DNA from: an uncultured virus (IMG/VR IMGVR_UViG_3300018080_006410)
Lineage: Duplodnaviria; Heunggongvirae; Uroviricota; Caudoviricetes
DNA: 64,000 nt
IMG/VR virus record: IMGVR_UViG_3300018080_006410
Direction: 5' to 3' (one strand)
Each line of letters opens with the position of its first letter. Position 1 is the stretch's first letter. Shown here piece by piece: positions 6,342 to 48,276 of the stretch. The notes beneath the pieces are model-generated. The model was not told the origin of the DNA and ran no database searches. It was given only the letters and a program-made list of their open reading frames with translations. The translations under genes were made by a program, and so were the position numbers.

Positions 6342-7786
6342 GTCGTCCTCACCTCCCCGAGCCGGCCCCGCCACTTGTCGAGCAGCGTCCTCTTCCACTT
6401 CCCGTAGTCGCCCCAGTCCGGACCCCGCTCGCTCCAGGTCGTCGAGTGGTGCTCGAACCTCCTGGACGGAACGACGAGACACCTCAGCCCGGCCGCCCTC
6501 ACCTGGCAGCAGTAGTCCTCCACGTGCAGGTGCAGCCCGGTGAACGTCCCGTCGTCGAACTTGAACCCCTTCGTCCGGTCAACCCCCATCACGCAGGCGT
6601 CGAGCGTCTCGACGTCCTGCTCCACGGACGCGTCCCGGGACCATATCTCGCCATCCGGCCTCCGGGCGCCCACAAGCCCAGCCGCGCCGACGTCGGGCCT
6701 CTGGACGGCCTCCACGACGTTCTGGAGGCCGTCGTGGGAGAACTCGGCGTCCGGCTCGCAGAAAACCACGACGTCCGACGTCGCGTCGCCAAGCATCCTG
6801 TTGTACTCGGTCGCCAGGCACGTCTCCGGACGGCCCCTCGTCAGCAGCCTCTCGACCCGGCAGCCGCTCAGGCTCCTGGCAAGTATGTCGTGAAGCACGC
6901 CGGCACGGACCCACACCGTCGCGACCGACGCGTCAACGTCGCCCTTCAGGAGGGCCTGGTAGGCGTCGTAATGCTCCGCCAGGCAGTTCCACGGCGCCAT
7001 CGGGTCGCACACCCTGCACCACATGGACCCTGGGTCCTGAAAGAAGCCGTACTTGCAGGTGCTCATCCCGTGGCGCTCGAAGCGGTCGCAGCCGAGCAGC
7101 CTGGGCTCGCTCCACTCGTGGGCGAACACCCCATGGGGCATTATCGCAGCGTTCGGCGGACGAACGGCCTCCATCTCGGACTTGGACCAGTAGGGGCGGT
7201 CCTTGCTCTCCCTCGGCCTCTCCGGCAGCGGAAGGACCCCCGCGGCCGCCAGAGCCGGGTTCCTCCTGAGCGCCGGGTTGTTGCTCCACCAGAACCCCGG
7301 CAGCATCTGGAAAGGCTCGGCCGACGGAGCGATCCTCCCGGGCCACCTCCACCACCAGTGCGCCATCACCTCCCGCTCGTCCAGGATGCGGCGCAAGTAG
7401 AGGTAGTCGCACCCGGCCCCCTCGGCCCACTCGACAGCCTTCTCGAGCCAGTCGCGCCCATGGCCGGAGGCATCCGGGTCGATCAGCTCGAAGTCGGACT
7501 CGACGTGGATGGCCCACTCGCAGTCGGCCACCATGGCCATGGCCCTGTTGATGCCGACGCTGACCCCCTGGTCGACGACCGCCCTCCCGGAGCGCCACTC
7601 CACACCGAGCTCCCTGGACTCCTTCAGCCTGTCAATGTAGATGGCCGTCCCGTCAGTCGAGGCGTTGTCGTAGATCGCGACGACGAGCGGACGATAGGAG
7701 GTGCGAGCAAGAAGCGACTCGACGCACCTTCTCAGGTAGTCTAGCCGCTCACCGTTCGTCAGTATGGATATGCCTACTCTCTTCAT
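6338..7786 (-). CDS. Glycosyltransferase family 2 protein (two GT-like domains)
   Basis: YLRRCVESLL, IYDNASTDGT, IHVESD; second domain YNRML..VVFCEPD..TLDAC..HLHVEDYC. Confidence 0.8.
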   Translation of the reverse strand: MKRVGISILTNGERLDYLRRCVESLLARTSYRPLVVAIYDNASTDGTAIYIDRLKESRELGVEWRSGRAVVDQGVSVGINRAMAMVADCEWAIHVESDFELIDPDASGHGRDWLEKAVEWAEGAGCDYLYLRRILDEREVMAHWWWRWPGRIAPSAEPFQMLPGFWWSNNPALRRNPALAAAGVLPLPERPRESKDRPYWSKSEMEAVRPPNAAIMPHGVFAHEWSEPRLLGCDRFERHGMSTCKYGFFQDPGSMWCRVCDPMAPWNCLAEHYDAYQALLKGDVDASVATVWVRAGVLHDILARSLSGCRVERLLTRGRPETCLATEYNRMLGDATSDVVVFCEPDAEFSHDGLQNVVEAVQRPDVGAAGLVGARRPDGEIWSRDASVEQDVETLDACVMGVDRTKGFKFDDGTFTGLHLHVEDYCCQVRAAGLRCLVVPSRRFEHHSTTWSERGPDWGDYGKWKRTLLDKWRGRLGEVRTT

Positions 7787-21798: not shown

Positions 21799-22140
21799 TC
21801 ACCCCGACCCCCTCGCCGGGTTCGGCACAGGAGCCCCTCCGTCGCTCACGTCCCAGGACCTCACCTCGTTCGCCTCGCCCTCCAGCAGCAGGAACTCCTT
21901 GTCGCCCCCCGGTCGCCCGACGACGGCCCTCCCGTTCCTCCGCAGCAAGTCGCAGACCCTTCGGTAGGTGAGCGGCGACTCGGTCGCCACGACGTCGTCG
22001 TAGGCCACCATGGAGGACTCCAGGTCCGGCACGAGGCCGACCATGGAGTCCCACGCGTTCTTCTTCTGGGTGAAGGTCCCGCGCACGAACATGCGCCCGA
22101 CCCCGGGCATCCTCTGAGCCATGACCACAAGCCTAGCCAT
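21799..22140 (-). CDS. Hypothetical protein
   Basis: ORF coupled to ATPase stop. Confidence 0.55.
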   Translation of the reverse strand: MARLVVMAQRMPGVGRMFVRGTFTQKKNAWDSMVGLVPDLESSMVAYDDVVATESPLTYRRVCDLLRRNGRAVVGRPGGDKEFLLLEGEANEVRSWDVSDGGAPVPNPARGSG

Positions 22141-38880: not shown

Positions 38881-38952
38881 TGGAGCCCCTGCCAGAATCG
38901 AACTGGCGTCTGGGCGCCACAAGTGCCCAGCTCTCCATTGAGCCGGGGACGT
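38881..38952 (-). pseudogene. Degenerate tRNA-like element (possible Thr TGT)
   Basis: D arm GCTC/GAGC, T arm GCCAG-TTCGATT-CTGGC, CCA end; imperfect acceptor and anticodon stems. Confidence 0.5.
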
Positions 38953-39058
38953 CAAGAAAGACCCCCGGGCCCACCCTTCCAACCGGTGTGGCCGCCTCCC
39001 GTGCAACTAGTATAGGAGCCGGACGTCGGAGTCGAACCGACAGGGGTCGAAAACCAAA

Positions 39059-39136
39059 TGGCCTCGAACGACAGGGCTCGAACCTGCGTCCTCCCGGAAA
39101 AAGAGCCGGGACGCTCTACCACTGAGCTACGTCGAG
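39059..39136 (-). ncRNA. tRNA-like RNA with 6-bp anticodon stem and 8-nt loop (copy 1)
   Basis: TCCCGG-CTCTTTTT-CCGGGA arm, canonical D/T arms, bulged acceptor stem, G73-CCA. Confidence 0.75.
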
Positions 39137-39143
39137 ACAAGAT

Positions 39144-39220
39144 TGGCAGGTGAGGCAGGGCTCGAACCTGCGTCCTCCCGGAAAAAGAGCCGGGACGCTC
39201 TACCACTGAGCTACACACCT
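39144..39220 (-). ncRNA. tRNA-like RNA with 6-bp anticodon stem and 8-nt loop (copy 2)
   Basis: 59-nt core identical to copy 1, different acceptor stem, G73-CCA. Confidence 0.75.
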
Positions 39221-39233
39221 GCATCCACTCCTA

Positions 39234-40676
39234 CTATACGCCCGCGGCCCGGACCTTCCGGCCCGACCCGTGAGAATTCGCGTCGGTCGCCCCGAGCGCG
39301 AAGCCGTCGCCGTCCCTGTCGACATGGAAGCCGCCGGCCGGGAGATGCTCGGCCCTGAGGGCCTTGGCCGAGAAGACCCCGGCCCTCCGCAGGGCGAGAG
39401 CCAGTCCCGGGCTCGACACGGCGACGCCGTGCACCAGCTCGGGGGTCGGCGTGAACTCCACGGCCCGGGCACGCCTCCTCGGCCCGACCCAGGACGCCGG
39501 CTCGACGCCGTGCCTCTCGCACGCGGCCACCACCATCTCCTTCGTGCACCGCTCCTTGCCCGCGACGACGTCCCACGGGTACGGAAGCTCAGCCCACACC
39601 TTGGTCCCCGGATGGACGTCGCCGCCCGAGGCCAGGTGCCAACGGACCACGTCCGCCGCCATCAGCCTCATGACCTTGCCCGGGCACAGGGCCTCAAGCA
39701 TGGAGCCCATGCCCATGGCGTGAAGCATCGACACCCAGTGGTCCCGGGCCTTGTTCCACCCGCCGGCCGACTGGTTCCACGTCGACGAGTCGCACCCGCG
39801 CCGCACCACCATCCTCTCCAGGTCGATGCCGCCGCCGGAACCCTCCCAGACCTCCGTGAGAAGGTCGCACGCGTCCTCCAGGAGACCCCACGCCCTCGCG
39901 AGCATGGCGCCCTTCTGGTAGTCCGTCAGGAGCCTCAGGACCCTGTCCACCGGATAGACGGCGGCCACGACGTCCCACCTGGCCGTGTTGGACTTGGTCA
40001 GGCGGTCGTACAGCATCTTGGCCACCACGTCGAAGGCCCGAACCTGGGAGTCGTTCGTGAAGGTGCTCCGAAGGCTCATCCTCGCGCTCATGTACGCCAC
40101 GAAGCAGGCCGTGCCCAGGTCGGCGGAGAAGTCGTCGAAGTCGATCTCCACGGCGAAGCCGCTCTTGCCGATCCGGGTCAGGACGTACTTCTTCCGCTCG
40201 CGGACCATCCTCAGGAGCTTGGACTCCATCCGGCCCAGGAGCCTGAAGCGCTTGTTGTAGGCGCGGTGCCCCATGTCGAGGCCCGCCTGCGCCCGCTGCT
40301 CCCGGTTCATCCGGTGCTTCAGGAAGTCGGACTGCCCGTAGCTCTTGCCGATGGCCGACGACACGCCCTGGACGAAGACCTCCACCCTCTCCGGGTCGAG
40401 GCACTCCTCCACCGACAGCATCGGAACGGAGAAGAGCTCGGACGCCACCTTGACCGGCTTCTCCATGCCCGTCGGGCGATGGAAGTCCGCGGCCATGGAC
40501 GAGTAGCCCAGGAGGTGGCTCCTCGTCGAGATCCTGGTCGCCTGCTTCAAGACGTTCCTCTGGGCCAGCGACAGCCGCGGAAGCAATGCCTCCAGCACGA
40601 CCTCGGCAACATCCTCCGGACGCGGACGCGTCTGAACGCACTCGTACAGCTTCCGAATCGTCTCTTCCCTCTTCAT
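39234..40676 (-). CDS. 480-aa protein of unknown function embedded among tRNA genes
   Basis: Long ORF with RBS; no motif I can assign. Confidence 0.8.
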   Translation of the reverse strand: MKREETIRKLYECVQTRPRPEDVAEVVLEALLPRLSLAQRNVLKQATRISTRSHLLGYSSMAADFHRPTGMEKPVKVASELFSVPMLSVEECLDPERVEVFVQGVSSAIGKSYGQSDFLKHRMNREQRAQAGLDMGHRAYNKRFRLLGRMESKLLRMVRERKKYVLTRIGKSGFAVEIDFDDFSADLGTACFVAYMSARMSLRSTFTNDSQVRAFDVVAKMLYDRLTKSNTARWDVVAAVYPVDRVLRLLTDYQKGAMLARAWGLLEDACDLLTEVWEGSGGGIDLERMVVRRGCDSSTWNQSAGGWNKARDHWVSMLHAMGMGSMLEALCPGKVMRLMAADVVRWHLASGGDVHPGTKVWAELPYPWDVVAGKERCTKEMVVAACERHGVEPASWVGPRRRARAVEFTPTPELVHGVAVSSPGLALALRRAGVFSAKALRAEHLPAGGFHVDRDGDGFALGATDANSHGSGRKVRAAGV

Positions 40677-40726
40677 GTCCCTGCCTCCTTTTCCCTGACG
40701 GCCGATCTCGTCGACCCGGCTTGAGT

Positions 40727-40800
40727 TGGTTCCCCCACCTGGACTCGAACCAGGACCAAAGGATTAACAGTCCTACGTGCTACCATTACACCATGGGGGA
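40727..40800 (-). tRNA. tRNA-Asn(GTT)
   Basis: Cloverleaf, loop CT-GTT-AA, CCA. Confidence 0.9.
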
Positions 40801-40803
40801 GTC

Positions 40804-40880
40804 TGGAGCCCAGAGAGGGACTCGAACCCTCGACCTGCCGATTACGAATCGGCTGCTCTTAGCCACTGAGCTATCCGGGC
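40804..40880 (-). tRNA. tRNA-Thr(CGT)
   Basis: Cloverleaf, loop TT-CGT-AA, CCA. Confidence 0.92.
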
Positions 40881-40998
40881 TTAATGCGGGCCTGCTCTCA
40901 CCCGAGTCACACCACTTCTCCTCCAGCCTGGTCGTCCACGGGTTCGTCCCCGCTCGTCGCCGGACCTTCTTCGGACAGGCAGGTGTCGCCTAAGTTGT

Positions 40999-41094
40999 TG
41001 GAGCCGATGTCTGGACTTGAACCGCCTCGACTACGCGCGCTGATCGAGGAAAACCTCCGGTTTACCCGGTGTGCTACCATTACACCACATCGGC
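40999..41094 (-). pseudogene. Aberrant Thr-like tRNA
   Basis: Perfect acceptor GCCGATG/CATCGGC and D arm; shrunken anticodon arm CCGG-GTAAA-CCGG; extra hairpin; broken T stem. Confidence 0.55.
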
Positions 41095-41105
41095 ATCTGA
41101 ATTGT

Positions 41106-41182
41106 TGGCACACCCGCTCGGGTTCGAACCGAGAACCTGCTGATTAAGAGTCAGCCGCTCTAGCCAACTGAGCTACGGGTGC
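41106..41182 (-). tRNA. tRNA-Lys(CTT)
   Basis: Cloverleaf, loop CT-CTT-AA, G73-CCA. Confidence 0.92.
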
Positions 41183-41203
41183 GAATAGACTCTCCTGTCG
41201 AGT

Positions 41204-41277
41204 TGGAGGTCCCGGCAGGGCTCGAACCTGCGGCCACGCGGTCCGAGCCGCCCGCTCTACCTCTAAGCTACGGAACC
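41204..41277 (-). pseudogene. tRNA-like element with 6-nt anticodon loop (CTCGGA)
   Basis: Good acceptor, D and T arms; loop one nt short. Confidence 0.6.
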
Positions 41278-41307
41278 TCGATCACATCTCCTTCTGTTGA
41301 ACCTCGT

Positions 41308-41344
41308 CTCCACCCTACATTGCCGAACGAGCAAGGTTTTCCAC
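41308..41344 (-). promoter_or_regulatory. Class A promoter-like motif inside tRNA unit 1
   Basis: GTGGAAAACCTTGCTCGTTCGGCAATGTAGGGTGGAG. Confidence 0.65.
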
Positions 41345-41358
41345 TCGCTCCGAATTTC

Positions 41359-41434
41359 TGGTCGGCTCGGAGGGACTCGAACCCTCGGCGTTCCGCTTAA
41401 AAGGCGGATGCTCTACCAACTGAGCTACGAGCCG
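41359..41434 (-). tRNA. tRNA-Lys(TTT)
   Basis: Cloverleaf, loop CT-TTT-AA. Confidence 0.93.
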
Positions 41435-41438
41435 TTCT

Positions 41439-41515
41439 TGGCAGGCCCGCTCGGGGTCGAACCGAGAACCGCCGGTTTTGGAGACCGGTGCTCTAGCCGA
41501 TTGAGCTACGGACCT
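41439..41515 (-). tRNA. tRNA-Trp(CCA)
   Basis: Cloverleaf, loop CT-CCA-AA. Confidence 0.93.
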
Positions 41516-41526
41516 ATCATGAAACC

Positions 41527-41602
41527 TGGTGCGACAGACGGGGCTCGAACCCGTGGCCTCCTGCTTGGCAAGCAGGTGCTCTTCCGACTGAGCTACTGCC
41601 GC
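41527..41602 (-). tRNA. tRNA-Gly(GCC)
   Basis: Cloverleaf, loop TT-GCC-AA. Confidence 0.93.
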
Positions 41603-41637
41603 AAAGAAAAACCCCCGCGCCCTTTCGGGCCGGGGGT
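41603..41637 (-). terminator. Attenuator terminator 1
   Basis: ACCCCCGGCCC-GAAA-GGGCGCGGGGGT-TTTTCTTT directly 5' of tRNA-Gly. Confidence 0.85.
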
Positions 41638-41659
41638 CTCACAGCGCGCTCGCCACCGT

Positions 41660-41743
41660 CTACGCTTGAACTCCAAGCGAAAGACCCCCGTGGGCGGGCT
41701 TGCCGCCCCAGGTATTGTCTTTCGTTGTGGTTCCCGTCAGCAT
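41660..41743 (-). CDS. Leader peptide 1 (MLTGTTTKDNTWGGKPAHGGLSLGVQA)
   Basis: 27-aa ORF between promoter and terminator; Thr/Lys/Asn/Trp/Gly codons; contains antiterminator strand. Confidence 0.75.
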   Translation of the reverse strand: MLTGTTTKDNTWGGKPAHGGLSLGVQA

Positions 41744-41767
41744 GACGTAGTTGCCTTTCGTTGCCTT

Positions 41768-41796
41768 ATTATACGCCGCTCGCCCGAATTTGCCAA
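41768..41796 (-). promoter_or_regulatory. Sigma70-like promoter of tRNA unit 1
   Basis: TTGGCA-N17-TATAAT. Confidence 0.8.
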
Positions 41797-41858
41797 GCGA
41801 CCTCTCGGTTTTTCCGACGGGGATCGAGGCCGGCCCCGGCCTGCCCGCGCCCAGGAGA

Positions 41859-41932
41859 TGGCTGCCCCGCCTGGACTCGAACCAGAACCGAGTGCTCCAA
41901 AGACACTTGTGCTGCCATTACACCACGGGGCA
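41859..41932 (-). tRNA. tRNA-Gln(TTG)
   Basis: Cloverleaf, loop CT-TTG-GA. Confidence 0.92.
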
Positions 41933-41951
41933 ATCCATGGCCGGACGGGCC

Positions 41952-42839
41952 CTAACACCCTCTGATAAAGTCCCAAAGCCCCTCCCGGTCAACATCGGCC
42001 AAGACCCTGGTGTTCGTCCCCTCCTCGACCTTCGTCCCCCACCAGCCTCCCTCCCGGTACAACCTTCCGCCAACCCAGGTCCCGATCTCGGGATGCAGAT
42101 GGCACACGGCAGCGGTCGGGTCGTGGAACTTCTTCTCCCGGTGCCTCTTCCCGTAGAGATAGAGGTCCATGCCTTCCATGAACAGCTCCATCGCCCGGCA
42201 GGAAGGCTTCCTGCGCCTCATCCACTCGTGCCTCGCCCTGTCGTACAGGATCGTGTGACAGACGTTCTTGCCGACGAACCTCAGGTCCCCGACCTTCGCC
42301 CGCGACGCCAGGAACAAGCCCTCGTCCTTCGACCCGTTCAAGTTGAAGGTAGGCACGGCCACCTTGCCCTTGAACTTGGGAAGCCTCTCGACGTCATGGC
42401 CATGAAGGTCGTATCCCAGAAAGCCACCCTGCATCGTGACCCGCCCGAACTCCCTCTCCGGATGCTCGATCATGTAGCGGCCCACGTTCTTCACCGGCCC
42501 GCAGATGAAGACGTCGCTGTCCGGATGGTCCTCGAGAACCCCGCCCAGAAGCTCGTGGCCGAAGCCGTCGGGGTCCGCCTCGGTCGGATGTCCCATCTTC
42601 CTCAGGAGCGCCATGTGGAACGACGTCCCTCCGGTCTTGACGACGCTCGTCTCCTTCGCGATCCCGACAGGGACATCCAGGCCGACCTCCGCGCAGAAGG
42701 CCCTCGCGATGGCGACCTGGTACCGGTGTCCGGGAGAGACGAGGATCGCCCTGATCCTGACACCCGCGGCGTGCAGGTGGCACAGCGTGAAGTAGTCGTC
42801 GGGATCGTGCCCGATGTCGGTTTCCACTATCAGGTCCAT
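41952..42839 (-). CDS. Nucleoside hydrolase family protein
   Basis: N-terminal ETDIGHDPDD (DxDxxxDD-like), CGPVKN, MQGG, TFNL, FHDP. Confidence 0.75.
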   Translation of the reverse strand: MDLIVETDIGHDPDDYFTLCHLHAAGVRIRAILVSPGHRYQVAIARAFCAEVGLDVPVGIAKETSVVKTGGTSFHMALLRKMGHPTEADPDGFGHELLGGVLEDHPDSDVFICGPVKNVGRYMIEHPEREFGRVTMQGGFLGYDLHGHDVERLPKFKGKVAVPTFNLNGSKDEGLFLASRAKVGDLRFVGKNVCHTILYDRARHEWMRRRKPSCRAMELFMEGMDLYLYGKRHREKKFHDPTAAVCHLHPEIGTWVGGRLYREGGWWGTKVEEGTNTRVLADVDREGLWDFIRGC

Positions 42840-43019
42840 CAATCGTCTTCCTCCATCTTCCTGCCTGCGAAAAGGTCCGTAGGTGTAAGCGCCCAGAGCT
42901 ACGGAGGCCGAGTGTTGTTGACGCAGTTTCCTCACTTCCTATCCCTTTCGGGTCTCGTTACTGCGAGAGTTTTTTGTTTTTGCGGTCCAGTTTCTCCACG
43001 TCTGGACACATCCCGAGAC

Positions 43020-43096
43020 TGGTCGGGCGGGCCGGGCTCGAACCGGCGACCTCAGCGCCCCAAACGCCGCGCGCTTCCAAACTGCGCCACCGCCCG
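43020..43096 (-). tRNA. tRNA-Pro(TGG)
   Basis: Cloverleaf, loop TT-TGG-GG. Confidence 0.93.
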
Positions 43097-43101
43097 AAAA
43101 C

Positions 43102-43178
43102 TGGTCGGGATGAGAGGATTTGAACCTCCGGCTTCCTCGCCCCGAACGAGGCGCTCTACCAGACTGAGCCACATCCCG
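43102..43178 (-). tRNA. tRNA-Pro(CGG)
   Basis: Cloverleaf, loop TT-CGG-GG. Confidence 0.93.
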
Positions 43179-43347
43179 ATAAGATGTCGCGGCCGCCGCC
43201 AGACGGAACGGGCGTCGGCGAACGGCGGCTTCGGACGTCACCCCACCACCGATTTCCGACAGTGCCTTCTTCCGAGCAATACCCGGTTGGCGCCCATCTG
43301 ATGACTTTCCCTCGCCGGTACCGGCCATCATCGCAACAAAAAACTAG

Positions 43348-43419
43348 TTGGCCCGCTCGGGATTGAACCGAGGACCCCGCAATTATGAGTCGCATGCTCT
43401 ACCGCTGAGCTACGGGCCA
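43348..43419 (-). tRNA. tRNA-Met/Ile2(CAT)
   Basis: Cloverleaf, loop CT-CAT-AA; followed by CTA rather than CCA. Confidence 0.85.
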
Positions 43420-43427
43420 TCTAAAAC

Positions 43428-43502
43428 TGGTAGCCCCAGGGGGAATCGAACCCCCGTCTCCGGGATGAAAACCCGACGTCCTTGCCACTAGACGATGGGG
43501 CC
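43428..43502 (-). tRNA. tRNA-Glu(TTC)
   Basis: Cloverleaf, loop TT-TTC-AT. Confidence 0.92.
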
Positions 43503-43567
43503 AAGTGGGACGCTTGCCCATTCACGCTTCAGGCGACGGAGTCAAACCGCTCGTCACGTCCCGATAT

Positions 43568-43646
43568 TGGTGGCGGGGGTGGGAGTTGAACCCACATGCT
43601 CCAGGTTATGAGCCTGGCGTCTTACCAAATCGACATTCACCCCGCT
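43568..43646 (-). tRNA. tRNA-Met(CAT), initiator-like
   Basis: Loop CT-CAT-AA; 1:72 mismatch (A:C). Confidence 0.8.
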
Positions 43647-43656
43647 CTCAAGTCTA

Positions 43657-43733
43657 TGGTCGGGATGGCAGGAATCGAACCTGCGACCTTCCGGCCCCCA
43701 GCCGGACGCTCTACCAGACTGAGCCACATCCCG
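43657..43733 (-). tRNA. tRNA-Pro(GGG)
   Basis: Cloverleaf, loop CT-GGG-GG. Confidence 0.92.
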
Positions 43734-43845
43734 AGTTCGGGGGAGTTTGCCGCTCCCCCAGGACTGCCGTCTACCCGCTTCTGCGCGTCTTGGAACTCGG
43801 CAAAGCCCGCGACTTGCTTTCCGGCCATATTGCAGCCCTCAATCC

Positions 43846-43920
43846 TGGCATCCCCAGCCGGACTCGAACCGGCGTCACGAGGTTGAGGGCCTCGCATCCT
43901 GGCCGCTAGACGATGGGGAC
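43846..43920 (-). tRNA. tRNA-Glu(CTC)
   Basis: Cloverleaf, loop CC-CTC-AA. Confidence 0.9.
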
Positions 43921-43934
43921 ACATATTCAATTGT

Positions 43935-44011
43935 TGGTCGGCCCAGGAGGAATCGAACCTCCGACCTAACGGTTATCAGCCGTTCGCTCTTACCAACTGA
44001 GCTATGGGCCG
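43935..44011 (-). tRNA. tRNA-Ile(GAT)
   Basis: Cloverleaf, loop CT-GAT-AA. Confidence 0.93.
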
Positions 44012-44042
44012 ACATGTTGCTCTCGCCTCTCTCCTTGACTGA

Positions 44043-44119
44043 TGGTGGGCGGTGCGAGACTCGAACTCGCAACCTTCAGCATGTCGAGCTGACGTTCTAG
44101 CCATCTGAACTAACCGCCC
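44043..44119 (-). tRNA. tRNA-Val(GAC)
   Basis: Cloverleaf, loop TC-GAC-AT. Confidence 0.9.
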
Positions 44120-44121
44120 AT

Positions 44122-44198
44122 TGGCACGCCCGGAAGGATTCGAACCTTCGACCCGCGCATTAGAAGTGCGCTGCTCGTATCCCCTGAGCTACGGGCGC
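44122..44198 (-). tRNA. tRNA-Arg(TCT)
   Basis: Cloverleaf, loop CT-TCT-AA. Confidence 0.93.
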
Positions 44199-44206
44199 TC
44201 GATATC

Positions 44207-44280
44207 TGGCTGCCCGGCAAGGACTCGAACCCTGACCGACTGGGCCAGAACCAGCTGTGCTGCCATTACACCACCGGGCA
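44207..44280 (-). tRNA. tRNA-Gln(CTG)
   Basis: Cloverleaf, loop TT-CTG-GC. Confidence 0.92.
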
Positions 44281-44286
44281 TCGAAC

Positions 44287-44362
44287 TGGTGACCACGGAA
44301 GGACTCGAACCTTCGACCATCCGGGTGTGGACCGGACGCTCCTGCCGCTGAGCTACGTGGCC
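44287..44362 (-). tRNA. tRNA-Val(CAC)
   Basis: Cloverleaf, loop TC-CAC-AC. Confidence 0.88.
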
Positions 44363-44369
44363 GTGATAT

Positions 44370-44447
44370 TGGCGGTGACGAAGGGATTTGAACCCTCGTT
44401 CTCTGCCGTGACAGGACAGCGCTTTCGGCCAACTAAGCTACGCCACC
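44370..44447 (-). tRNA. tRNA-Asp(GTC)
   Basis: Cloverleaf, loop CT-GTC-AC, G73. Confidence 0.92.
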
Positions 44448-44456
44448 GCATGATCC

Positions 44457-44534
44457 TGGGCGCCCCGACGGGACTCGAACCCGCGGCCTCCCGGGCCACG
44501 ACCGGGCGCTCTTCCTGACCGAGCTCCGAGGCGC
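44457..44534 (-). tRNA. tRNA-His(GTG)
   Basis: Loop TC-GTG-GC, G-1:C73. Confidence 0.9.
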
Positions 44535-44545
44535 ATCTGAATTGT

Positions 44546-44623
44546 TGGTGGACCGACAGGGGATCGAACCCTGGACATCCTGATTGCAAGTCAGGTGCTC
44601 TTAGCCAACTGAGCTACCGGCCC
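44546..44623 (-). tRNA. tRNA-Ala(TGC)
   Basis: Loop CT-TGC-AA, G3:U70. Confidence 0.93.
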
Positions 44624-44659
44624 GTCCTGCTCGTGACTCGCCCTCCTTCTCTCGACTCC

Positions 44660-44699
44660 AAAGAAAAACCCCCGACGCCCTTTTCGGGGTGCCGGGGGT
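44660..44699 (-). terminator. Attenuator terminator 2
   Basis: ACCCCCGGCACCCC-GAAAA-GGGCGTCGGGGGT-TTTTCTTT upstream of tRNA-Ala. Confidence 0.85.
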
Positions 44700-44716
44700 C
44701 CTTGGACCTATCAGGG

Positions 44717-44797
44717 TCAGAACACAGCACCCCCGGCACCCGCGTTCGCGGGCTGCTCGATCGCTTCGTGTCTGGCCATCGGGTTCATTGAGTACAT
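44717..44797 (-). CDS. Leader peptide 2 (MYSMNPMARHEAIEQPANAGAGGAVF)
   Basis: 26-aa ORF with AAGGAG RBS between promoter and terminator; contains 13-nt antiterminator strand. Confidence 0.8.
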   Translation of the reverse strand: MYSMNPMARHEAIEQPANAGAGGAVF

Positions 44798-44812
44798 TGC
44801 TCCTTGCCTATT

Positions 44813-44842
44813 ATCATACGCCGTCAACGCCAGTCTTACCAG
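44813..44842 (-). promoter_or_regulatory. Sigma70-like promoter of tRNA unit 2
   Basis: CTGGTA-N18-TATGAT with GGCG extension. Confidence 0.65.
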
Positions 44843-44874
44843 CCCCCTCGGAGATTTTTCCGAGAACCGGCCCG

Positions 44875-45498
44875 TCAGCCCTCCAGCTCGACGTCCCAGT
44901 ACATGGCGCCGAGGAAGTCCTCCCACGACCTGGGAGGGTCCCTCAGGATGCCACGCCTGTTGACGACGGCCCAGTGCGGCTCCCTCGGCTCCCTCAGGAG
45001 CGTCAGGCCCGCCTCCCTGGGCGTCCGGCTGTCCTTCTTGTGGTTGCACCTCACGCACGAGAGAACCAGGTTCTCCCAGGTCGTGCCTCCACCCCTGGAC
45101 TTGGGGACCACGTGGTCGATGTTGAGCTTGGAGGCCGGCAGCTTCTTGCCGCAGTACTGACAGACGTTCCGGTCGCGGGCGAAGATCGCCTTCCGGCAGA
45201 GCTTGGCCCGACGACGCCAGAAGCGGACCTTCCGGACGAGCCGGATGACCTCCGGCGCCGGGAAGGCGAAGCTCCTGGAACGCACGAGGGGGCGCCCCGA
45301 CTCGGCCATCTCCGCGGCCCTGGCCGCGTCGGACCAGCTCTCGACCCACTCCTCGAAGCCGTAGAGGGAGTAGTCATTGTCGACGACGTCGGCCTTCCCC
45401 GCGCACACCTTGCACAGGGCCCCGACCACGTTCGTCACGTCCACCGGCCTCCACGAGCCGTCAAGCACCAGGACCCGCCTGTCAAGCACTCCCGTCAT
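44875..45498 (-). CDS. HNH endonuclease
   Basis: IFARDRNVCQYCG, IDHVVPKSRGG, WENLVLSCVRCNHKK. Confidence 0.92.
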   Translation of the reverse strand: MTGVLDRRVLVLDGSWRPVDVTNVVGALCKVCAGKADVVDNDYSLYGFEEWVESWSDAARAAEMAESGRPLVRSRSFAFPAPEVIRLVRKVRFWRRRAKLCRKAIFARDRNVCQYCGKKLPASKLNIDHVVPKSRGGGTTWENLVLSCVRCNHKKDSRTPREAGLTLLREPREPHWAVVNRRGILRDPPRSWEDFLGAMYWDVELEG

Positions 45499-45601
45499 CG
45501 CCCCGCTCCTTCTCGTAGTCGTCGATCGTCACCTCGCCTCAAGCCTCGCGGCGCACCTCCTGGCCTATTGTACACCGCCAGAGGCCCGTCTTCAAAGAGG
45601 A

Positions 45602-45678
45602 TGGTCCGTCTGGTAGGGATCGAACCTACAACCTGTCGCGTATGAGACGACCGCTCTAACCAACTGAGCTACAGACGG
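45602..45678 (-). tRNA. tRNA-Met/Ile2(CAT)
   Basis: Cloverleaf, loop CT-CAT-AC. Confidence 0.9.
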
Positions 45679-45685
45679 ATAATTC

Positions 45686-45761
45686 TGGAGGACCCGGCGG
45701 GACTCGAACCCGCGACCTTCGGCTTCGGAGACCGATGTTCTTCCAACTGAACTACAGGTCC
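45686..45761 (-). tRNA. tRNA-Arg(CCG)
   Basis: Cloverleaf, loop CT-CCG-AA. Confidence 0.92.
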
Positions 45762-45768
45762 TCAAAGT

Positions 45769-45846
45769 TGGCACGCCCGGCAGGATTCAAACCTGCGACT
45801 TCCCCGTCCGTAGCGGGGCGCTCTATTCAGACTGAGCTACGGGCGC
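45769..45846 (-). tRNA. tRNA-Arg(ACG)
   Basis: Cloverleaf, loop CT-ACG-GA. Confidence 0.9.
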
Positions 45847-45852
45847 TCATTA

Positions 45853-46518
45853 TCAAAACTTCCCAGGCTCCCACCAGGAGGCCGACTTCCGGCTTTCGTA
45901 AGACCTGTCCAGCTGGTGGCCCCTGCAAAAGTCCCTGGTTCCTCTCCAGAGGTGATGCACGTAGTCCTGGACCGGGAAGTCCACCAGCATCGACTCCATC
46001 CTCTTGACCCTCAGCTCGTACATCGGCGCCACCAGCGCAAGCCCGTGGTCCGTGAACGGCTCGAACCGCCGATAGTACCCGACATGGAAGAGGCACGTCG
46101 ACGAATGAAGGTACGAAACCTTCTCGCCTCCCACCGGCCTTTTCACCGGCGCGACCGGCCCTATCCCGTACCACCTGGTCTTCCGGCCCCCGACCTTCGC
46201 CAGGGCGTCCTCCAGCAAGTTCGGCTCGTACATCTCCGTATCGCTGTCCAGCATCAGCAGCACGTCGGCCTCCGTCGCCCACAGCGCCACGTTCATCCCC
46301 GGCCCATGGCCGATGTTGGACCCCACCCGGATAAGCCTCACCCGGTTCCTCTTCGCCCATTTCCTGACGTTCCTCGGAGCGACCCCCTCGGTGTTGTCCA
46401 CCACGAAGAAGTCGATGTCCGGATAGAACCTCCTCACCGACGCCACCGCCTTCCTCATCAGGCCGTAGGTGTGATAGACGACCATCGCCGCGGCCACCCG
46501 ACAGCCCTCGATCTTCAT
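45853..46518 (-). CDS. Glycosyltransferase family 2 protein
   Basis: FVVDN, NIGHGPGMN, LLMLDSD. Confidence 0.8.
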   Translation of the reverse strand: MKIEGCRVAAAMVVYHTYGLMRKAVASVRRFYPDIDFFVVDNTEGVAPRNVRKWAKRNRVRLIRVGSNIGHGPGMNVALWATEADVLLMLDSDTEMYEPNLLEDALAKVGGRKTRWYGIGPVAPVKRPVGGEKVSYLHSSTCLFHVGYYRRFEPFTDHGLALVAPMYELRVKRMESMLVDFPVQDYVHHLWRGTRDFCRGHQLDRSYESRKSASWWEPGKF

Positions 46519-46550
46519 CAGCAACCTCCTTTGGGTTGCCCTTAACATAC

Positions 46551-46641
46551 TGGCGGAGAGCCGGGGACTCCAACCCCGAAGCCCGGTTTCCCGGACCGAC
46601 GCCGTTTCCAACGGCGCTCCTCATGCAGCCGGATGCTCTCC
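46551..46641 (-). tRNA. tRNA-Ser(GGA)
   Basis: Loop TT-GGA-AA, long variable arm; atypical T loop TTGGAGT. Confidence 0.85.
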
Positions 46642-46649
46642 TCAAAGTC

Positions 46650-46819
46650 TGAAGCCGACGGGACTCGAACCCGCATCCCGGTGCGTCCTGCCCATTCCGC
46701 AGCCCGCGTGGCTGGCCATGTCACAGCCCTTTGGACTCGCAGGCGTCACCCGTCGCGCTTGCGCCTCGACGGGCTATGCGGCGCTCCGCTCCGGCCCTTG
46801 CCATTAGGTGGACGGCCTC
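46650..46819 (-). ncRNA. 170-nt tRNA-like RNA with Ala-type acceptor and ~100-nt insert replacing the anticodon loop
   Basis: GAGGCCG/CGGCTTC (G3:U70), A73, D arm CCT-AATGGCA-AGG, T arm GCGGG-TTCGAGT-CCCGT. Confidence 0.7.
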
Positions 46820-46827
46820 ATCGAAAA

Positions 46828-46903
46828 TGGAGACGGGGGAGGGACTCGAACCCTCATGAACGCGGGTTGCAACCGCGCGCCTAAACCTCTCAGCCACCCC
46901 GCC
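46828..46903 (-). tRNA. tRNA-Cys(GCA)
   Basis: Loop TT-GCA-AC, U73. Confidence 0.92.
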
Positions 46904-46941
46904 AAAAATCTCCTTTGCTACACTGCTACACTGCTACACCT

Positions 46942-47025
46942 TGGTGCCCGAGACAGGGATCGAACCTGCACGCCTTTCGACAGCCGAACTTAAACCGGCC
47001 GCGTCTGCCATTCCGCCACTCGGGC
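46942..47025 (-). tRNA. tRNA-Leu(TAA)
   Basis: Loop TT-TAA-GT, variable arm. Confidence 0.92.
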
Positions 47026-47030
47026 CAAAT

Positions 47031-47107
47031 TGGTGGTGAGAGTCGGAATCGAACCAACGACGCCTCGGGCTTCAACCGAGTGCTCTACCGGACTGAGCTA
47101 CCTCACC
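47031..47107 (-). tRNA. tRNA-Phe(GAA)
   Basis: Loop TT-GAA-GC. Confidence 0.93.
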
Positions 47108-47185
47108 GAAAGTCCCTTCCAGTTCTGGCCGGGCGTTTGGACCCGTCGGGCTGCCAAGCCCGAGCACCGGTCGGGACACAATCTT

Positions 47186-47276
47186 TGGCGGAGAGCCGGG
47201 GAATCGAACCCCGAAACCCCGTTTCCAGGGCCTACCGGTTTAGCAAACCGACTCCTCGTCCATCCGGACGCTCTCC
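47186..47276 (-). tRNA. tRNA-Ser(GCT)
   Basis: Loop TT-GCT-AA, long variable arm. Confidence 0.9.
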
Positions 47277-47281
47277 ACTAT

Positions 47282-47458
47282 TCAAATCTCCTCGTACTTC
47301 CCCCAGAAACCCATCGGGCACGACTCTTCTGCCAACGACGCCTTTCGTCTGACGTTGCACCTCTCCACCAAGCACACCATCGCCTTGGCGTCCATCTTAC
47401 GACACGGCTTGCACCAACGGTCAAGTCGCTCGCGTATCACCGAGTTTGGCGCCCTCAC
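47282..47458 (-). CDS. Small Cys-rich protein (58 aa) inside tRNA unit 3
   Basis: AGGAGG RBS, GTG start, WCKPC...VC..RC...SCPMGFW; below ORF-track size cut-off. Confidence 0.65.
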   Translation of the reverse strand: MRAPNSVIRERLDRWCKPCRKMDAKAMVCLVERCNVRRKASLAEESCPMGFWGKYEEI

Positions 47459-47474
47459 TCCTTCCTCCTATCAA

Positions 47475-47551
47475 TGGTGCAGTGGACGCGAATCGAACGC
47501 GCGACCTTCCGCTTGGAAGGCGGAAGCTCTACCTGGCTGAGCTACCACTGC
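47475..47551 (-). tRNA. tRNA-Gly(TCC)
   Basis: Loop CT-TCC-AA. Confidence 0.92.
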
Positions 47552-47560
47552 GTCTAAATC

Positions 47561-47646
47561 TGGTGCCCGAGGAGGGAGTCGAACCCTCACCGCCTTTCGG
47601 CACTGCGGTCTGAGCGCAGCGTGTCTGCCAATTCCACCACCCGGGC
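47561..47646 (-). tRNA. tRNA-Leu(CAG)
   Basis: Loop CT-CAG-AC, variable arm. Confidence 0.92.
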
Positions 47647-47744
47647 TTGTTGCCGGGTTCTCTCCACCCGGCGAAGTCACGCCTTTGCATACCCCACAAG
47701 ACGTTAATGGGTTGCACCGAGGTTTGAAGCCCCGGTCCACATCT

Positions 47745-47835
47745 TGGCGGAGAGCCGGAGACTCGAACTCCGAAGCCCCGTTCCCGGGACCTACGCGCTT
47801 TCGAAACGCGCTCCTCATCCGGCCGGATGCTCTCC
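47745..47835 (-). tRNA. tRNA-Ser(CGA)
   Basis: Loop TT-CGA-AA, long variable arm. Confidence 0.9.
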
Positions 47836-47843
47836 ATGATTCC

Positions 47844-47930
47844 TGGTGACCCCGGGGAGACTCGAACTCCCACGCCCTCTCGGGCCCCCGGCCCTCAACC
47901 GGGGCCGTATGCCAATTCCGGCACGGGACC
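47844..47930 (-). tRNA. tRNA-Leu(GAG)
   Basis: Loop TT-GAG-GG, variable arm. Confidence 0.92.
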
Positions 47931-47943
47931 ACTGTTCAGTTGT

Positions 47944-48029
47944 TGGTGCGCCGAGATGGAGTCGAACCATCAAAGCCCGAAGGCGCCGATTTTACAGACC
48001 GGGGAGCTCGCCAAATGCTCAGCCGACGC
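47944..48029 (-). tRNA. tRNA-Tyr(GTA)
   Basis: Loop CT-GTA-AA, variable arm. Confidence 0.9.
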
Positions 48030-48091
48030 ATCTCGTCGTCGATCATCTCCTTCTCTCGATCCCGGACTCGCTATCTCGTTCCATTTGTTGC

Positions 48092-48176
48092 TGGTAGCCC
48101 AGGGGAGAGTCGAACTCCCATCCCCGAAGGGACCCGATTTTGAATCGGGCGCGTATGCCAATTCCGCCACTGGGCC
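48092..48176 (-). tRNA. tRNA-Leu(CAA)
   Basis: Loop TT-CAA-AA, variable arm. Confidence 0.92.
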
Positions 48177-48185
48177 TTTCAATCC

Positions 48186-48276
48186 TGGAGGAGGGCCGGG
48201 GACTCCAACCCCGAGACCCCGTTTCCAGGGCCTACCCGATTTCAAATCGAGCTCCTCGTGCAGCCGGTCGCCCTCC
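48186..48276 (-). tRNA. tRNA-Ser(TGA)
   Basis: Loop TT-TGA-AA, long variable arm; atypical T loop TTGGAGT. Confidence 0.85.

Follow-up and report, generated by a model that had tools for sequence, protein, structure and literature searches.

We found that a 170-nt unit on the minus strand of the window (the whole 64,000-nt stretch of phage DNA analysed here) is probably an RNA gene in which a tRNA-derived, non-decoding frame carries an extended, branched anticodon arm, one branch of which ends in a module of a widespread family; this reading draws on sequence comparison. The tRNA frame and the module are both present, the module covaries and is spread among phages, tRNA genes near it lie in the same orientation, and it is used on unrelated frames and on plain hairpins. 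The module family is undescribed in the literature and databases searched. The data support that part of the first-pass annotation which described a non-decoding RNA gene in the shape of a tRNA, its anticodon replaced by a structured domain. We infer that the tRNA body serves as packaging for processing and stability and that the module is the working part, a division of labour that we think somewhat likelier than its alternatives taken together. Non-decoding tRNA-shaped RNAs are rare, and tmRNA, the Y-RNA-like RNAs and the viral tRNA-like ends each opened biology; here a natural tRNA scaffold is paired with a small module with 21 near-invariant letters.

The source is a giant phage found in sediment and seawater, and the unit is identical across five assemblies from four studies, with no variants in the covered parts of contigs from four low-share sequencing runs. 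It lies within a tRNA array between tRNA-Cys (46828-46903) and tRNA-Ser(GGA) (46551-46641), in a regular array slot 8 nt past the tRNA-Cys CCA and 9 nt ahead of the next tRNA. We saw no sign of the attenuated unit and leader in which the locus had initially been placed: the neighbours are tRNA genes, and GCA, given there as an otherwise unmatched leader codon, is the anticodon of the tRNA-Cys just upstream. Other irregularities of the array are T-arm fragments (38883-39047), an anticodon loop of 6 nt, two of 8 nt, and an odd unit of 96 nt. Searching IMG/VR with neighbouring proteins gave no usable match, and scanning metagenomes with the adjacent glycosyltransferase yielded one relative, L001 (60% identity), which lacks both the 170-nt unit and the module. 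The tRNA frame consists of the following parts, with RNA position p equal to window coordinate 46820 - p:

46650..46819, minus strand: whole tRNA-shaped unit, 170 nt
46813..46819, minus strand: acceptor 5' strand GAGGCCG (RNA 1-7), pairing with 46651-46657, G3:U70 included
46795..46812, minus strand: D region UCCACCUAAUGGCAAGGG (RNA 8-25), loop tRNA-like with GG, stem degenerate
46787..46794, minus strand: 5' strand of the anticodon-position stem, CCGGaGCG (RNA 26-33), complementary to 46678-46685 with one A-A mismatch
46678..46685, minus strand: 3' strand of the anticodon-position stem, CGCaCCGG (RNA 135-142), assigned by complementarity
46658..46674, minus strand: T arm GCGGG-UUCGAGU-CCCGU (RNA 146-162), normal
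46650..46657, minus strand: acceptor 3' strand CGGCUUC and discriminator A (A73), followed by GAC, not CCA

The acceptor GAGGCCG/CGGCUUC with G3:U70 and A73, reported in the first-pass annotation, was confirmed on the minus strand (7 bp, pair probability 0.67-0.99 in the computed fold), and the T arm GCGGG-UUCGAGU-CCCGU is indeed normal. With the tRNA-His of the array the unit shares GCGGGUUCGAGUCCCGUCGG letter for letter, a stretch reaching from the T arm into the first letters of the acceptor 3' strand. The D arm had also been called normal, which does not hold: set against those of the array's tRNAs for Glu, Gln and Asn, the loop UAAUGGCAA is tRNA-like, while the stem allows only two Watson-Crick pairs. 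The proposed CCGG/CCGG closure of the insert stood and extends to an 8-bp stem, CCGGaGCG/CGCaCCGG, present in the constrained fold and enclosing about 100 nt. An encoded CCA is absent from the unit, whereas 40 of the 41 other array units have one. Among tRNA hallmarks, the unit shows the 7-bp acceptor, a UUCRANY T loop and a D loop with GG; between its stem strands lie ~101 nt from which no 7-nt anticodon loop can be restored. In this GC-rich DNA, a chance 7-bp acceptor partner (G:U allowed) occurs about once per 450 nt upstream of a T arm, and such a partner alone is not significant here; likewise, the fold of the entire molecule is no more stable than that of shuffled sequences (z = -0.49). 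We judge the frame to be real because four things coincide: the spacing is correct, a D-loop motif is present, a stem directly adjoins the T arm, and the unit fills an array slot. The insert we judge to be real because it is conserved in other contexts.

The two scans suggested in the first-pass annotation called nothing: ARAGORN (default) reported neither a tRNA nor a tmRNA at the unit, and Rfam 15 no family, with no RF00005 match even at E up to 10. We considered whether the unit is an intron-containing tRNA, which would become functional once roughly 100 nt had been removed by splicing, along the lines proposed for the Lak megaphages. Predicted tRNA introns in phages have precedent in the available extract of Devoto et al. 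2019 (PMC6784885), which resembles our case in its oversized tRNA genes in huge-phage sets and its conserved insert, and the ARAGORN intron mode proposes a tRNA-Ser(CGA) with a 58-nt intron. However, the acceptor of that model is weaker (an A-C mismatch and two G-U pairs), its D arm is atypical and its long variable region is unpaired. With the frame described above, a Y-U-NNN-R-N loop cannot be made from the letters adjoining the stem, whether in the window or in two other carriers of the module (L103 type and L133), and sequence inspection found no excision that restores an ordinary anticodon loop. A group I intron finds no footing either, with no Intron_gpI match or other group I signature (Rfam), an insert of about 100 nt and flanks that make no anticodon loop. 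As presented in that extract, the Lak tRNAs are read as ordinary tRNAs with an anticodon, whereas here no loop is restorable and the insert core also occurs outside any tRNA. Together these observations make an intron very unlikely.

Charging with alanine as a mini tmRNA or ribosome-rescue RNA, also suggested in the first-pass annotation, is the reading to which we give next to no credence. The unit does share with tmRNA the acceptor and T arm with G3:U70 and A73, the lack of a proper D stem, and a long helix that replaces the anticodon stem and leads to a structured internal domain; there is also one frame with a stop codon (GCC...UGA), and ARAGORN gives a tag at the 80% threshold. Against this, no tmRNA is called by default, and the relaxed setting (ps80) returns a tag labelled 'not identified' together with a 5' domain borrowed from elsewhere. 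The best match to an Rfam tmRNA family falls on the T arm and reaches 6.8 bits, where the gathering score is 84. The unit has no recognisable tag frame, the putative one crossing conserved helices, no series of pseudoknots and no encoded CCA, and nothing is conserved after the module. Other frames of the family lack G3:U70; since the L103 type has G3:C70 and L133 has C3:G70, alanine identity is not a family feature.

Within the insert, we distinguished a side hairpin from the conserved module and its closing stem:

46748..46774, minus strand: side hairpin GCCCGUCG...CGACGGGU with a GCAA cap (RNA 46-72), pair probability 0.7-0.98
46739..46744, minus strand: 5' strand of the module's outer closing stem, GCCUGC (RNA 76-81), pairing with 46702-46707
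46708..46738, minus strand: conserved module, 31 nt (RNA 82-112), defined by conservation, covariation and a covariance-model match
46729..46737, minus strand: 5' bulge AGUCCAAAG (RNA 83-91)
46715..46723, minus strand: apical loop UGACAUGGC (RNA 97-105), family pattern U-G-N-N-A-N-G-G-C with the loop left free in the search
46702..46707, minus strand: 3' strand of the outer closing stem, GCGGGC (RNA 113-118), assigned by covariation of the same columns

The module reads GAGUCCAAAG-GGCUG-UGACAUGGC-CAGCC-AC, that is, a G, the bulge, the stem strand GGCUG, the loop, the stem strand CAGCC, an A and a C. Only the first of three hairpins initially proposed for the insert survives as plausible, the side hairpin, which lies outside the module and has a different hairpin at the equivalent place in L078-type RNAs. 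The other two, GGCTGT/ATGGCC and CAGCC/GGCTG, are unsupported; in the comparative data GGCUG (RNA 92-96) pairs with CAGCC (106-110). Thermodynamics disfavours the comparative structure (-68.3 versus -77.9 kcal/mol for the MFE) and gives the closing stem a pair probability of 0.02. A loop-bulge pairing GUC/GAC within the module was unsupported.

The evidence for the module comes from its relatives. Its 132 distinct contexts come from phage contigs of IMG/VR and from five bacterial genomes or MAGs. An exact 17-mer search returned 49 IMG/VR loci, about 45 of which extend to the full 31 nt; the flanks of these ~45 loci are unrelated in sequence, yet mutually complementary. Leaving the inner stem free in the search pattern gave 57 loci with eight versions of the 5-bp stem, and the two 5-mers were complementary in 57/57; on bacterial genome contigs five of seven matches were complementary, while the other two were not and look like chance. 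In a set of 53 distinct sequences, pairing reaches 100% in the inner stem and 72% in the outer one, and compensatory changes occur at 5/5 and 6/6 pairs, respectively. The covariation score of 0.631 was reached by none of 500 shuffles (0.241 +/- 0.017) and compares with 0.07-0.13 for slid partners. With the loop left free (at least 120 matches), U97 and A101 are invariant and G98 nearly so, whereas 99, 100 and 102 vary. The bulge is invariant in the conservation table, although for positions 84-91 this is partly built in because two of the three search patterns fixed them. In the family, a variable closing stem leads to the 9-nt bulge AGUCCAAAG and on to a covarying 5-bp stem, which is capped by a 9-nt loop (UGNNA-N-GGC); a single A is also unpaired, and there are 21 near-invariant unpaired letters. 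A covariance model of the family (R1: closing stem, GAGUCCAAAG, 5-bp stem, UGNNANGGC, 5-bp stem, AC) matched the window module over its full length with 67.7 bits (E 2e-17), as a single copy in the window and with all letters agreeing with the family consensus. A second 17-mer (GCUGCGGAAUGGGCAGG) had 24 loci, none extending past the word, and was set aside as chance or coding.

The conservation of the insert, which the first-pass annotation had named as a check, is therefore borne out: its core is strongly conserved and covaries. Searches of the module found no Rfam family, at E up to 10 for ribozymes, and no match in cultured-phage records; blastn of the unit and insert against 50,697 phage records gave T-arm matches only, a weak match in Aeromonas phage Aeh1 being an unrelated tRNA-like stretch, and a 25-nt string of T arm plus acceptor had 0 matches in IMG/VR. 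A full-text literature search for the module letters returned 0 papers, and other literature searches named no such RNA. Six supplementary files of a 10,006-entry catalogue of viral structured RNAs (PMC10690425) had 0 matches; the family may be in the remaining three. With no Rfam match, no restorable anticodon loop and a conserved core, the candidacy for a new ncRNA class stands.

The shape of the module also raises a catalytic reading, a new class of small self-cleaving ribozyme or an RNA-processing signal beside phage tRNAs in the style of the theta (HDV-like) ribozymes. With about 45 nt, variable stems and invariant joining letters, it resembles small ribozymes, and theta ribozymes are small conserved modules beside phage tRNAs in many uncultivated phages, as described in the portion of Kienbeck et al. 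2024 (PMC10879173) available to us. According to the same portion, they lie just outside the tRNA and have a nested double-pseudoknot HDV fold with a catalytic C. This fold does not map onto the module (in a mapping that was manual only), which has no P1 strand after P3 and nothing conserved 3' of it. No ribozyme family matched even at E up to 10, and cleavage within a tRNA frame would destroy its carrier, so that we consider a ribozyme or processing signal quite improbable.

We then examined where the module is found. Its settings are the tips of hairpins, tRNA arrays, the vicinity of packaging genes, and tRNA-like frames, of which there are at least five of differing sequence (the window, the L103 type, L004, L100 and L133); on these frames it is always mounted at the anticodon position. 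In five further loci (L097, L117, L118, L123 and L138) it occupies an array slot. ARAGORN found tRNA or tmRNA genes within 2.5 kb of 13 of the 52 non-redundant loci, the other 39 having no tRNA gene there; in 12 of the 13 the gene lies on the module strand and in 11 there is one within 300 nt. The hosts of the phages span Proteobacteria, Acidobacteriota and Chloroflexota, with at least four host phyla in all.

This distribution bears on whether the frame does anything at all. A mobile hairpin could have landed in the anticodon loop of a tRNA, leaving a functionless, decaying pseudogene that happens to carry the module; the degenerate D stem, the absent CCA, the other odd or broken units in the array and the movement of the module among unrelated contexts would fit such a history. 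Yet at least five different tRNA frames carry it, each time at the anticodon position, the L103-type frame is fully canonical with an encoded CCA, nothing left over from an anticodon loop borders the insert in the window, and the unit has the same sequence in all five assemblies (four studies). We therefore regard a decaying frame as distinctly unlikely. If the frame is instead functional packaging, as we favour, RNase P and the 3' tRNA-processing enzymes would cut the unit out of the array transcript, and the tRNA body would make the excised unit stable.

A different role for the module, as a site or decoy for a host or phage protein (for example, a nuclease-sequestering anti-defence RNA) with the tRNA frame only as packaging, is possible, though we lean against it. 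Near-invariance of 21 unpaired letters in phages of at least four host phyla points to a partner that is itself very conserved, most loci have no nearby tRNA, and the module occupies moron-like positions within the packaging module, beside TerS, TerL, portal or HNH genes. On the other hand, the neighbourhoods have no common protein family (the largest cluster covers 5/58 loci, all from related phages). The decoy reading also leaves the repeated tRNA frames and array slots unexplained, and Rfam has no matching known RNA decoy family. That phages with hosts in Proteobacteria, Acidobacteriota and Chloroflexota have the module in common indicates a very conserved target, which most likely belongs to translation or to the tRNA machinery.

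One candidate activity of the module is suggested by its unpaired letters. In the bulge, AGUCCA fits the T-loop pattern AGNN+1+A, which is AGNNA plus a pyrimidine inserted ahead of the final A, a feature also of T-loop 1 in the L1 stalk, and UGACA in the apical loop fits UGNNA, with family variation in the loop restricted to both N positions and position 102. The double T-loop signature AGNNA...UGNNA is thus present in the right order with the loops joined by a short helix. Bulge and loop may tentatively be seen as two interlocked T-loops forming a flat platform that would dock on the elbow of a tRNA or tRNA-like RNA, a reading that is post hoc and based on six letters. The T-loop patterns, as well as the unpaired platform residues of the L1 stalk and T-box, are those given in the available part of Lehmann et al. 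2013 (PMC3664808). As far as the excerpts of PMC3664808 and PMC4919913 go, the L1 stalk, RNase P J11/12-J12/13 and the T-box Stem I apex have the same order of AG...A bulge, short helix and UG...A loop as the module. In the E. coli 23S L1 stalk, AGGAUA (2114-2119) and UGAAA (2167-2171) are separated by the 5-bp H77; the module likewise has two loops split by a 5-bp helix and the same extra pyrimidine in the first loop, and tRNA association is common to both.

Several features set the module apart from these systems. The N positions of its bulge T-loop are nearly invariant, not free. The putative T-loops start directly after the helices G82:C112 and G96:C106, so the unpaired residues of a docking platform are missing. 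The module has its own invariant AAG after the first loop and NGGC after the second, without counterpart, and it has no specifier, K-turn, catalytic domain or rRNA context; fold and tRNA binding are putative here. That it constitutes a fourth independent natural class of interdigitated double T-loop, elbow-docking device is a doubtful proposition. If it held, phages might deploy the module as a free-standing small RNA, on a hairpin or tRNA-shaped carrier, which would grip tRNAs or tRNA-like RNAs in trans and shield, sort, chaperone or hijack them late in infection. Phages would then use the cell's own tRNA-grasping device, and the module would be an example of the viral RNA devices for manipulating tRNA for which Zhang and Ferre-D'Amare 2016 (PMC4919913, in the portion available) proposed a search. 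If the T-loop reading is false, the family is still a well-supported structured RNA absent from Rfam. A reading of the loop as a start-codon or initiator-anticodon mimic was dropped because loop position 102 varies (C/U/A).

Among bacterial Y RNAs, YrlA (RF02553) has its RNA ends at the non-tRNA module and a closed acceptor-like stem. Like it, the unit is a non-decoding RNA joining a tRNA-like part to another functional module; its ends, in contrast, are at the acceptor stem, and RF02553 does not match it. Miller and colleagues are said to have placed rnaC and rnaD within the T4 tRNA cluster in 2003. These species 1 and 2 RNAs, as outlined in the available text of PMC12685909, are similar to the unit as stable-looking small non-tRNA RNA genes among phage tRNA genes, without sequence similarity to it (blastn against 50,697 phage records, T arm only). 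Finally, one cultured strain, Pandoraea iniqua LMG 31009, has a copy of the module (L135), which, together with the strong covariation and many members, makes the family directly testable.

The 170-nt unit at 46650-46819 on the minus strand is a tRNA-shaped, non-decoding gene within a tRNA array of ~42 tRNA-type units (39059-48276, minus strand). It begins 8 nt past the CCA of tRNA-Cys and stops 9 nt short of the next tRNA. Numbered as RNA (position p at window coordinate 46820 - p), it is modeled with the following parts.

Parts of the 170-nt unit (all minus strand)
RNA 1-7/163-169: acceptor stem GAGGCCG/CGGCUUC, including G3:U70, then A
D region: 18 nt, loop UAAUGGCAA
RNA 26-33/135-142: stem at the anticodon position, CCGGaGCG/CGCaCCGG, 8 bp, one A-A mismatch
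RNA 39-43/119-123: possible 5-bp stem
RNA 46-72: side hairpin, GCAA-capped
RNA 76-118: module hairpin, with its conserved 31-nt core at RNA 82-112
RNA 146-162: T arm GCGGG-UUCGAGU-CCCGU

The acceptor stem that the first-pass annotation had described, with G3:U70 and the A after it, is present on the minus strand (46819-46650). Both arms had been called normal; this holds for the T arm, and the D stem has two Watson-Crick pairs at most. Its loop is akin to the D loops of the array's Glu, Gln, and Asn tRNAs. The proposed CCGG/CCGG closure of the insert was seen and extends to the 8-bp stem, which begins and ends exactly at the expected anticodon-stem positions, with ~101 nt between its strands. 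GAC lies directly 3′ of the unit, and among the array's 41 other units 40 encode CCA. The Rfam and ARAGORN scans suggested as a check gave no ARAGORN call at 46650-46819 and no Rfam 15 match, also with the E cutoff relaxed to 10. Chance alone gives this GC-rich DNA ~1 acceptor partner of 7 bp (G:U allowed) per 450 nt ahead of a T arm, and the unit's folding energy is not better than that of shuffled versions (z = -0.49). The tRNA-like frame is credible because its parts stand in combined register, not because of any one helix.

We found that the insert holds a module with strong covariation. A 17-mer covering RNA 93-109 matched 49 IMG/VR loci, and in ~45 of these the match grew to 31 nt (GAGUCCAAAG-GGCUG-UGACAUGGC-CAGCC-AC), with flanks outside it that were unrelated in sequence between loci, yet mutually complementary. 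A control 17-mer (RNA 117-133) matched 24 IMG/VR loci, with extension in 0/24. Leaving both inner-stem 5-mers free, a second IMG/VR pattern returned 57 loci, all 57 perfectly complementary, in eight versions: GGCUG/CAGCC (32 loci), AGCUG/CAGCU (9), GGGUA/UACCC (5), GAUCG/CGAUC (5), GAAUG/CAUUC (2), GAGCG/CGCUC (2), AAGCG/CGCUU (1), and GGCUA/UAGCC (1). Among prokaryotes (one genome per species) this pattern had seven matches, five with complementary 5-mers; the carriers are MAGs of Cellvibrionaceae, Steroidobacteraceae, Terracidiphilus, and Tepidiformaceae, and the isolate Pandoraea iniqua LMG 31009, the one cultured strain, which makes the module family testable. The two non-complementary matches look like chance and were removed before 53 distinct module sequences were aligned. 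In this alignment the inner stem was paired in 100%, with compensatory changes at 5/5 pairs, and the outer stem in 72%, with compensatory changes at 6/6 pairs. The covariation score was 0.631 versus 0.241 ± 0.017 in shuffles (0/500 reached 0.631) and 0.07-0.13 with slid partners. A covariance model from homologues, also proposed earlier, was built from these 53 sequences; it scored the window's module copy at 67.7 bits and found no second copy in the window.

A third pattern left the 9-nt apical loop free and gave at least 120 matches. Among those listed, the loop was UGACACGGC in 51, UGACAUGGC in 34, UGACAAGGC in 20, UGAUACGGC in 7, another variant in 7, and an outlier in 1. Across the 132 distinct 71-nt module contexts among the matches listed, U97 and A101 were constant in all real members, position 98 was G in 129/132, and positions 99, 100, and 102 varied. 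Because the search patterns fixed many positions, invariance at 84-91 is overstated in the conservation table. No Rfam family matched the window's module copy or those of 20 related loci, and a full-text literature search for its letters returned no paper. Rfam 15, 50,697 cultured-phage records, and the searchable texts, three supplementary files of a large viral RNA catalogue excepted, contained no member of the family. The loop's variation follows the T-loop pattern UGNNA. An unlikely rival explanation for such a family is a new ribozyme.

The module is widespread, in phages whose hosts belong to at least four phyla. In large phages it occupies a slot between tRNAs (L097, the 480-kb contig L117, L118, L123, and L138); its place in 30-60 kb phages is the packaging module. 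ARAGORN tRNAs occurred near 10 of 49 loci (600-nt flanks), every one on the module's strand. With 2.5-kb flanks, tRNA or tmRNA genes were near 13 of 52 non-redundant loci, on the same strand in 12 and the opposite strand in one, and within 300 nt in 11. On L092, a 175-kb IMG/VR contig, ARAGORN reported a tmRNA (tag GDNVVHVDFGRKAAVARAA) 624 nt upstream of the module on its strand, followed by a run of tRNAs. We compared 78 neighboring ORFs, each 140 aa or longer, with PHROGs.

Neighbors and carriers of the module (L-handles in this list are contigs or loci carrying it)
TerL just upstream: L086, L095, L115, L124, L125
Portal just downstream: L086, L103, L113
TerS downstream: L084, L090, L126, L132
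HNH downstream: L112, L118
Holliday-junction resolvase upstream: L078, L079
Carrier, plain hairpin of 9-13 bp: L085, L094
Carrier, three-way junction with side hairpin: L078 type
Carrier, tRNA-like frames of unrelated sequence: window, L103 type, L004, L100, L133

No protein family was common to the module neighborhoods; the largest cluster covered 5 of 58 loci, all in related phages. A protein decoy is another, less probable rival. The module forms the tip of an extended anticodon arm in every tRNA-like frame examined, and the L103-type frame is fully canonical with an encoded CCA. The unit might instead, though improbably, be a dead tRNA struck by a mobile hairpin. An intron is a further, unlikely rival; taking out an insert does not turn any of the module-bearing tRNA-like frames into an ordinary tRNA. 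A mini tmRNA is the least likely rival, and G3:U70 is not common to these frames. As regards a new non-coding RNA with a tRNA body, the first-pass proposal is supported; alanine identity and ribosome rescue are not supported, and the first-pass observation is partly confirmed.

For the window's copy, frame pairs and comparative pairs were combined into one model of -68.3 kcal/mol versus -77.9 for the MFE. The closing stem of the module has a probability of just 0.02 in the energy model; the predicted structure therefore rests on comparative pairs, not thermodynamics.

The module bulge starts AGUCCA, that is, AGNNA with one added pyrimidine ahead of the final A. Lehmann et al. (2013, PMC3664808) describe a double T-loop module, AGNNA then UGNNA, with which the L1 stalk, RNase P, and T-box Stem I dock onto the tRNA elbow; its first T-loop in the L1 stalk has an additional residue between letters four and five. 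In E. coli 23S rRNA, 2114-2119 is AGGAUA, with one extra residue as in the module bulge, and 2167-2171 is UGAAA; between these T-loops, H77 (GGUGG/CCACC) has 5 bp, as does the module's inner stem. A search of viral transcriptomes for the motif was proposed by Zhang and Ferre-D'Amare (2016, PMC4919913). Unlike the module described by Lehmann et al., ours lacks the unpaired platform residues because both putative T-loops come directly after helices. There is very little variation at the bulge loop's N positions, which counts against T-loop equivalence, and the resemblance was spotted after the fact. Judged from these motifs, a double T-loop fold is possible rather than probable, and tRNA-elbow docking by the module is unlikely.

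Acceptor and T-arm minihelices are recognized by tRNA-processing enzymes, RNase P among them. Because the unit retains such a minihelix, we infer that it would be transcribed with the array and then excised by these enzymes. The frame would supply defined ends and stability and the module would be the active tip, conceivably a T-loop platform gripping the elbow of a tRNA or tRNA-like RNA.

The window has 62-72% G+C and a steadily negative GC skew, and its minus strand holds nearly all genes. The proteins are a large tailed phage set, including a collagen-like tail fibre, an NAD-dependent DNA ligase, CobS/CobT-like proteins, and HNH endonucleases. Five runs of sediment and seawater, from four studies, contain near-identical DNA; none of the runs on record is RNA. 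No unit variants were seen in contigs of four low-share runs. The protein adjoining the unit is recorded on a 298,395-base contig.

Further features of the window (all minus strand)
22140-24716: 858-aa ATPase-like protein, split by an intein that bears a LAGLIDADG domain (Pfam)
38883-39047: a pair of orphan T arms, each with an acceptor-like 3′ strand but no standard 5′ half, downstream of the array's last tRNAs; either tRNA remnants or one long tRNA-like unit of ~165 nt
39059-39137 and 39144-39220: neighboring tRNAs with 8-nt anticodon loops (CUCUUUUU), ARAGORN anticodon 'cttt', unlike acceptor stems, and encoded CCA; they look like Lys-type plus one loop base, as +1 frameshift suppressors are built
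40999-41094: 96-nt unit with good acceptor stem and D arm and CCA, whose irregular middle contains two small hairpins and whose T stem is poor (ARAGORN Ser(GGA); Rfam 30.8 bits, barely over threshold); may be another non-decoding tRNA-like RNA
41204-41277: tRNA with 6-nt anticodon loop CUCGGA (ARAGORN 'cg'), similar to the array's tRNA-Arg(CCG) minus one loop base
44875-45498: HNH endonuclease gene within the array
45853-46518: family 2 glycosyltransferase gene within the array
46551-46641 and 48189-48276: full-length type II tRNAs Ser(GGA) and Ser(UGA), with unusual T loop UUGGAGU (C56 to G) and encoded CCA, called neither by ARAGORN nor by Rfam at its gathering score

Between tRNA-Leu(UAA) and tRNA-Cys, the 8-nt repeat ctacactg (plus strand) stands three times in tandem (46904-46941). 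The gene at 41952-42935 is nucleoside-hydrolase-like.

In cultured-phage records, the T arm was the only matching part of the unit, and IMG/VR scans with the T-arm string and three neighbor proteins gave no usable relatives. The adjoining glycosyltransferase has one relative (60% identity), on metagenome contig L001, which has a related array of tRNAs but neither the unit nor, by covariance model, the module. At L001 5835-5950, a T arm and 3′ acceptor strand, a UUCG loop, and the matching 5′ acceptor strand precede a D arm and an anticodon arm with UAA; the arrangement resembles a tRNA-Leu-like element that is circularly permuted, with a tetraloop capping its acceptor stem. Just upstream (5745-5785) comes an orphan T arm with acceptor and CCA. 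A ~190-nt non-coding stretch (6985-7185), between a small ORF and tRNA-Leu(CAG), is closed by a long helix (GGCACCGCU/AGCGGUGCC), contains several helices within, and had no Rfam match with E values to 0.1. L001 also encodes a tRNA with anticodon CTA (651-728; ARAGORN), an amber suppressor labeled Pyl.
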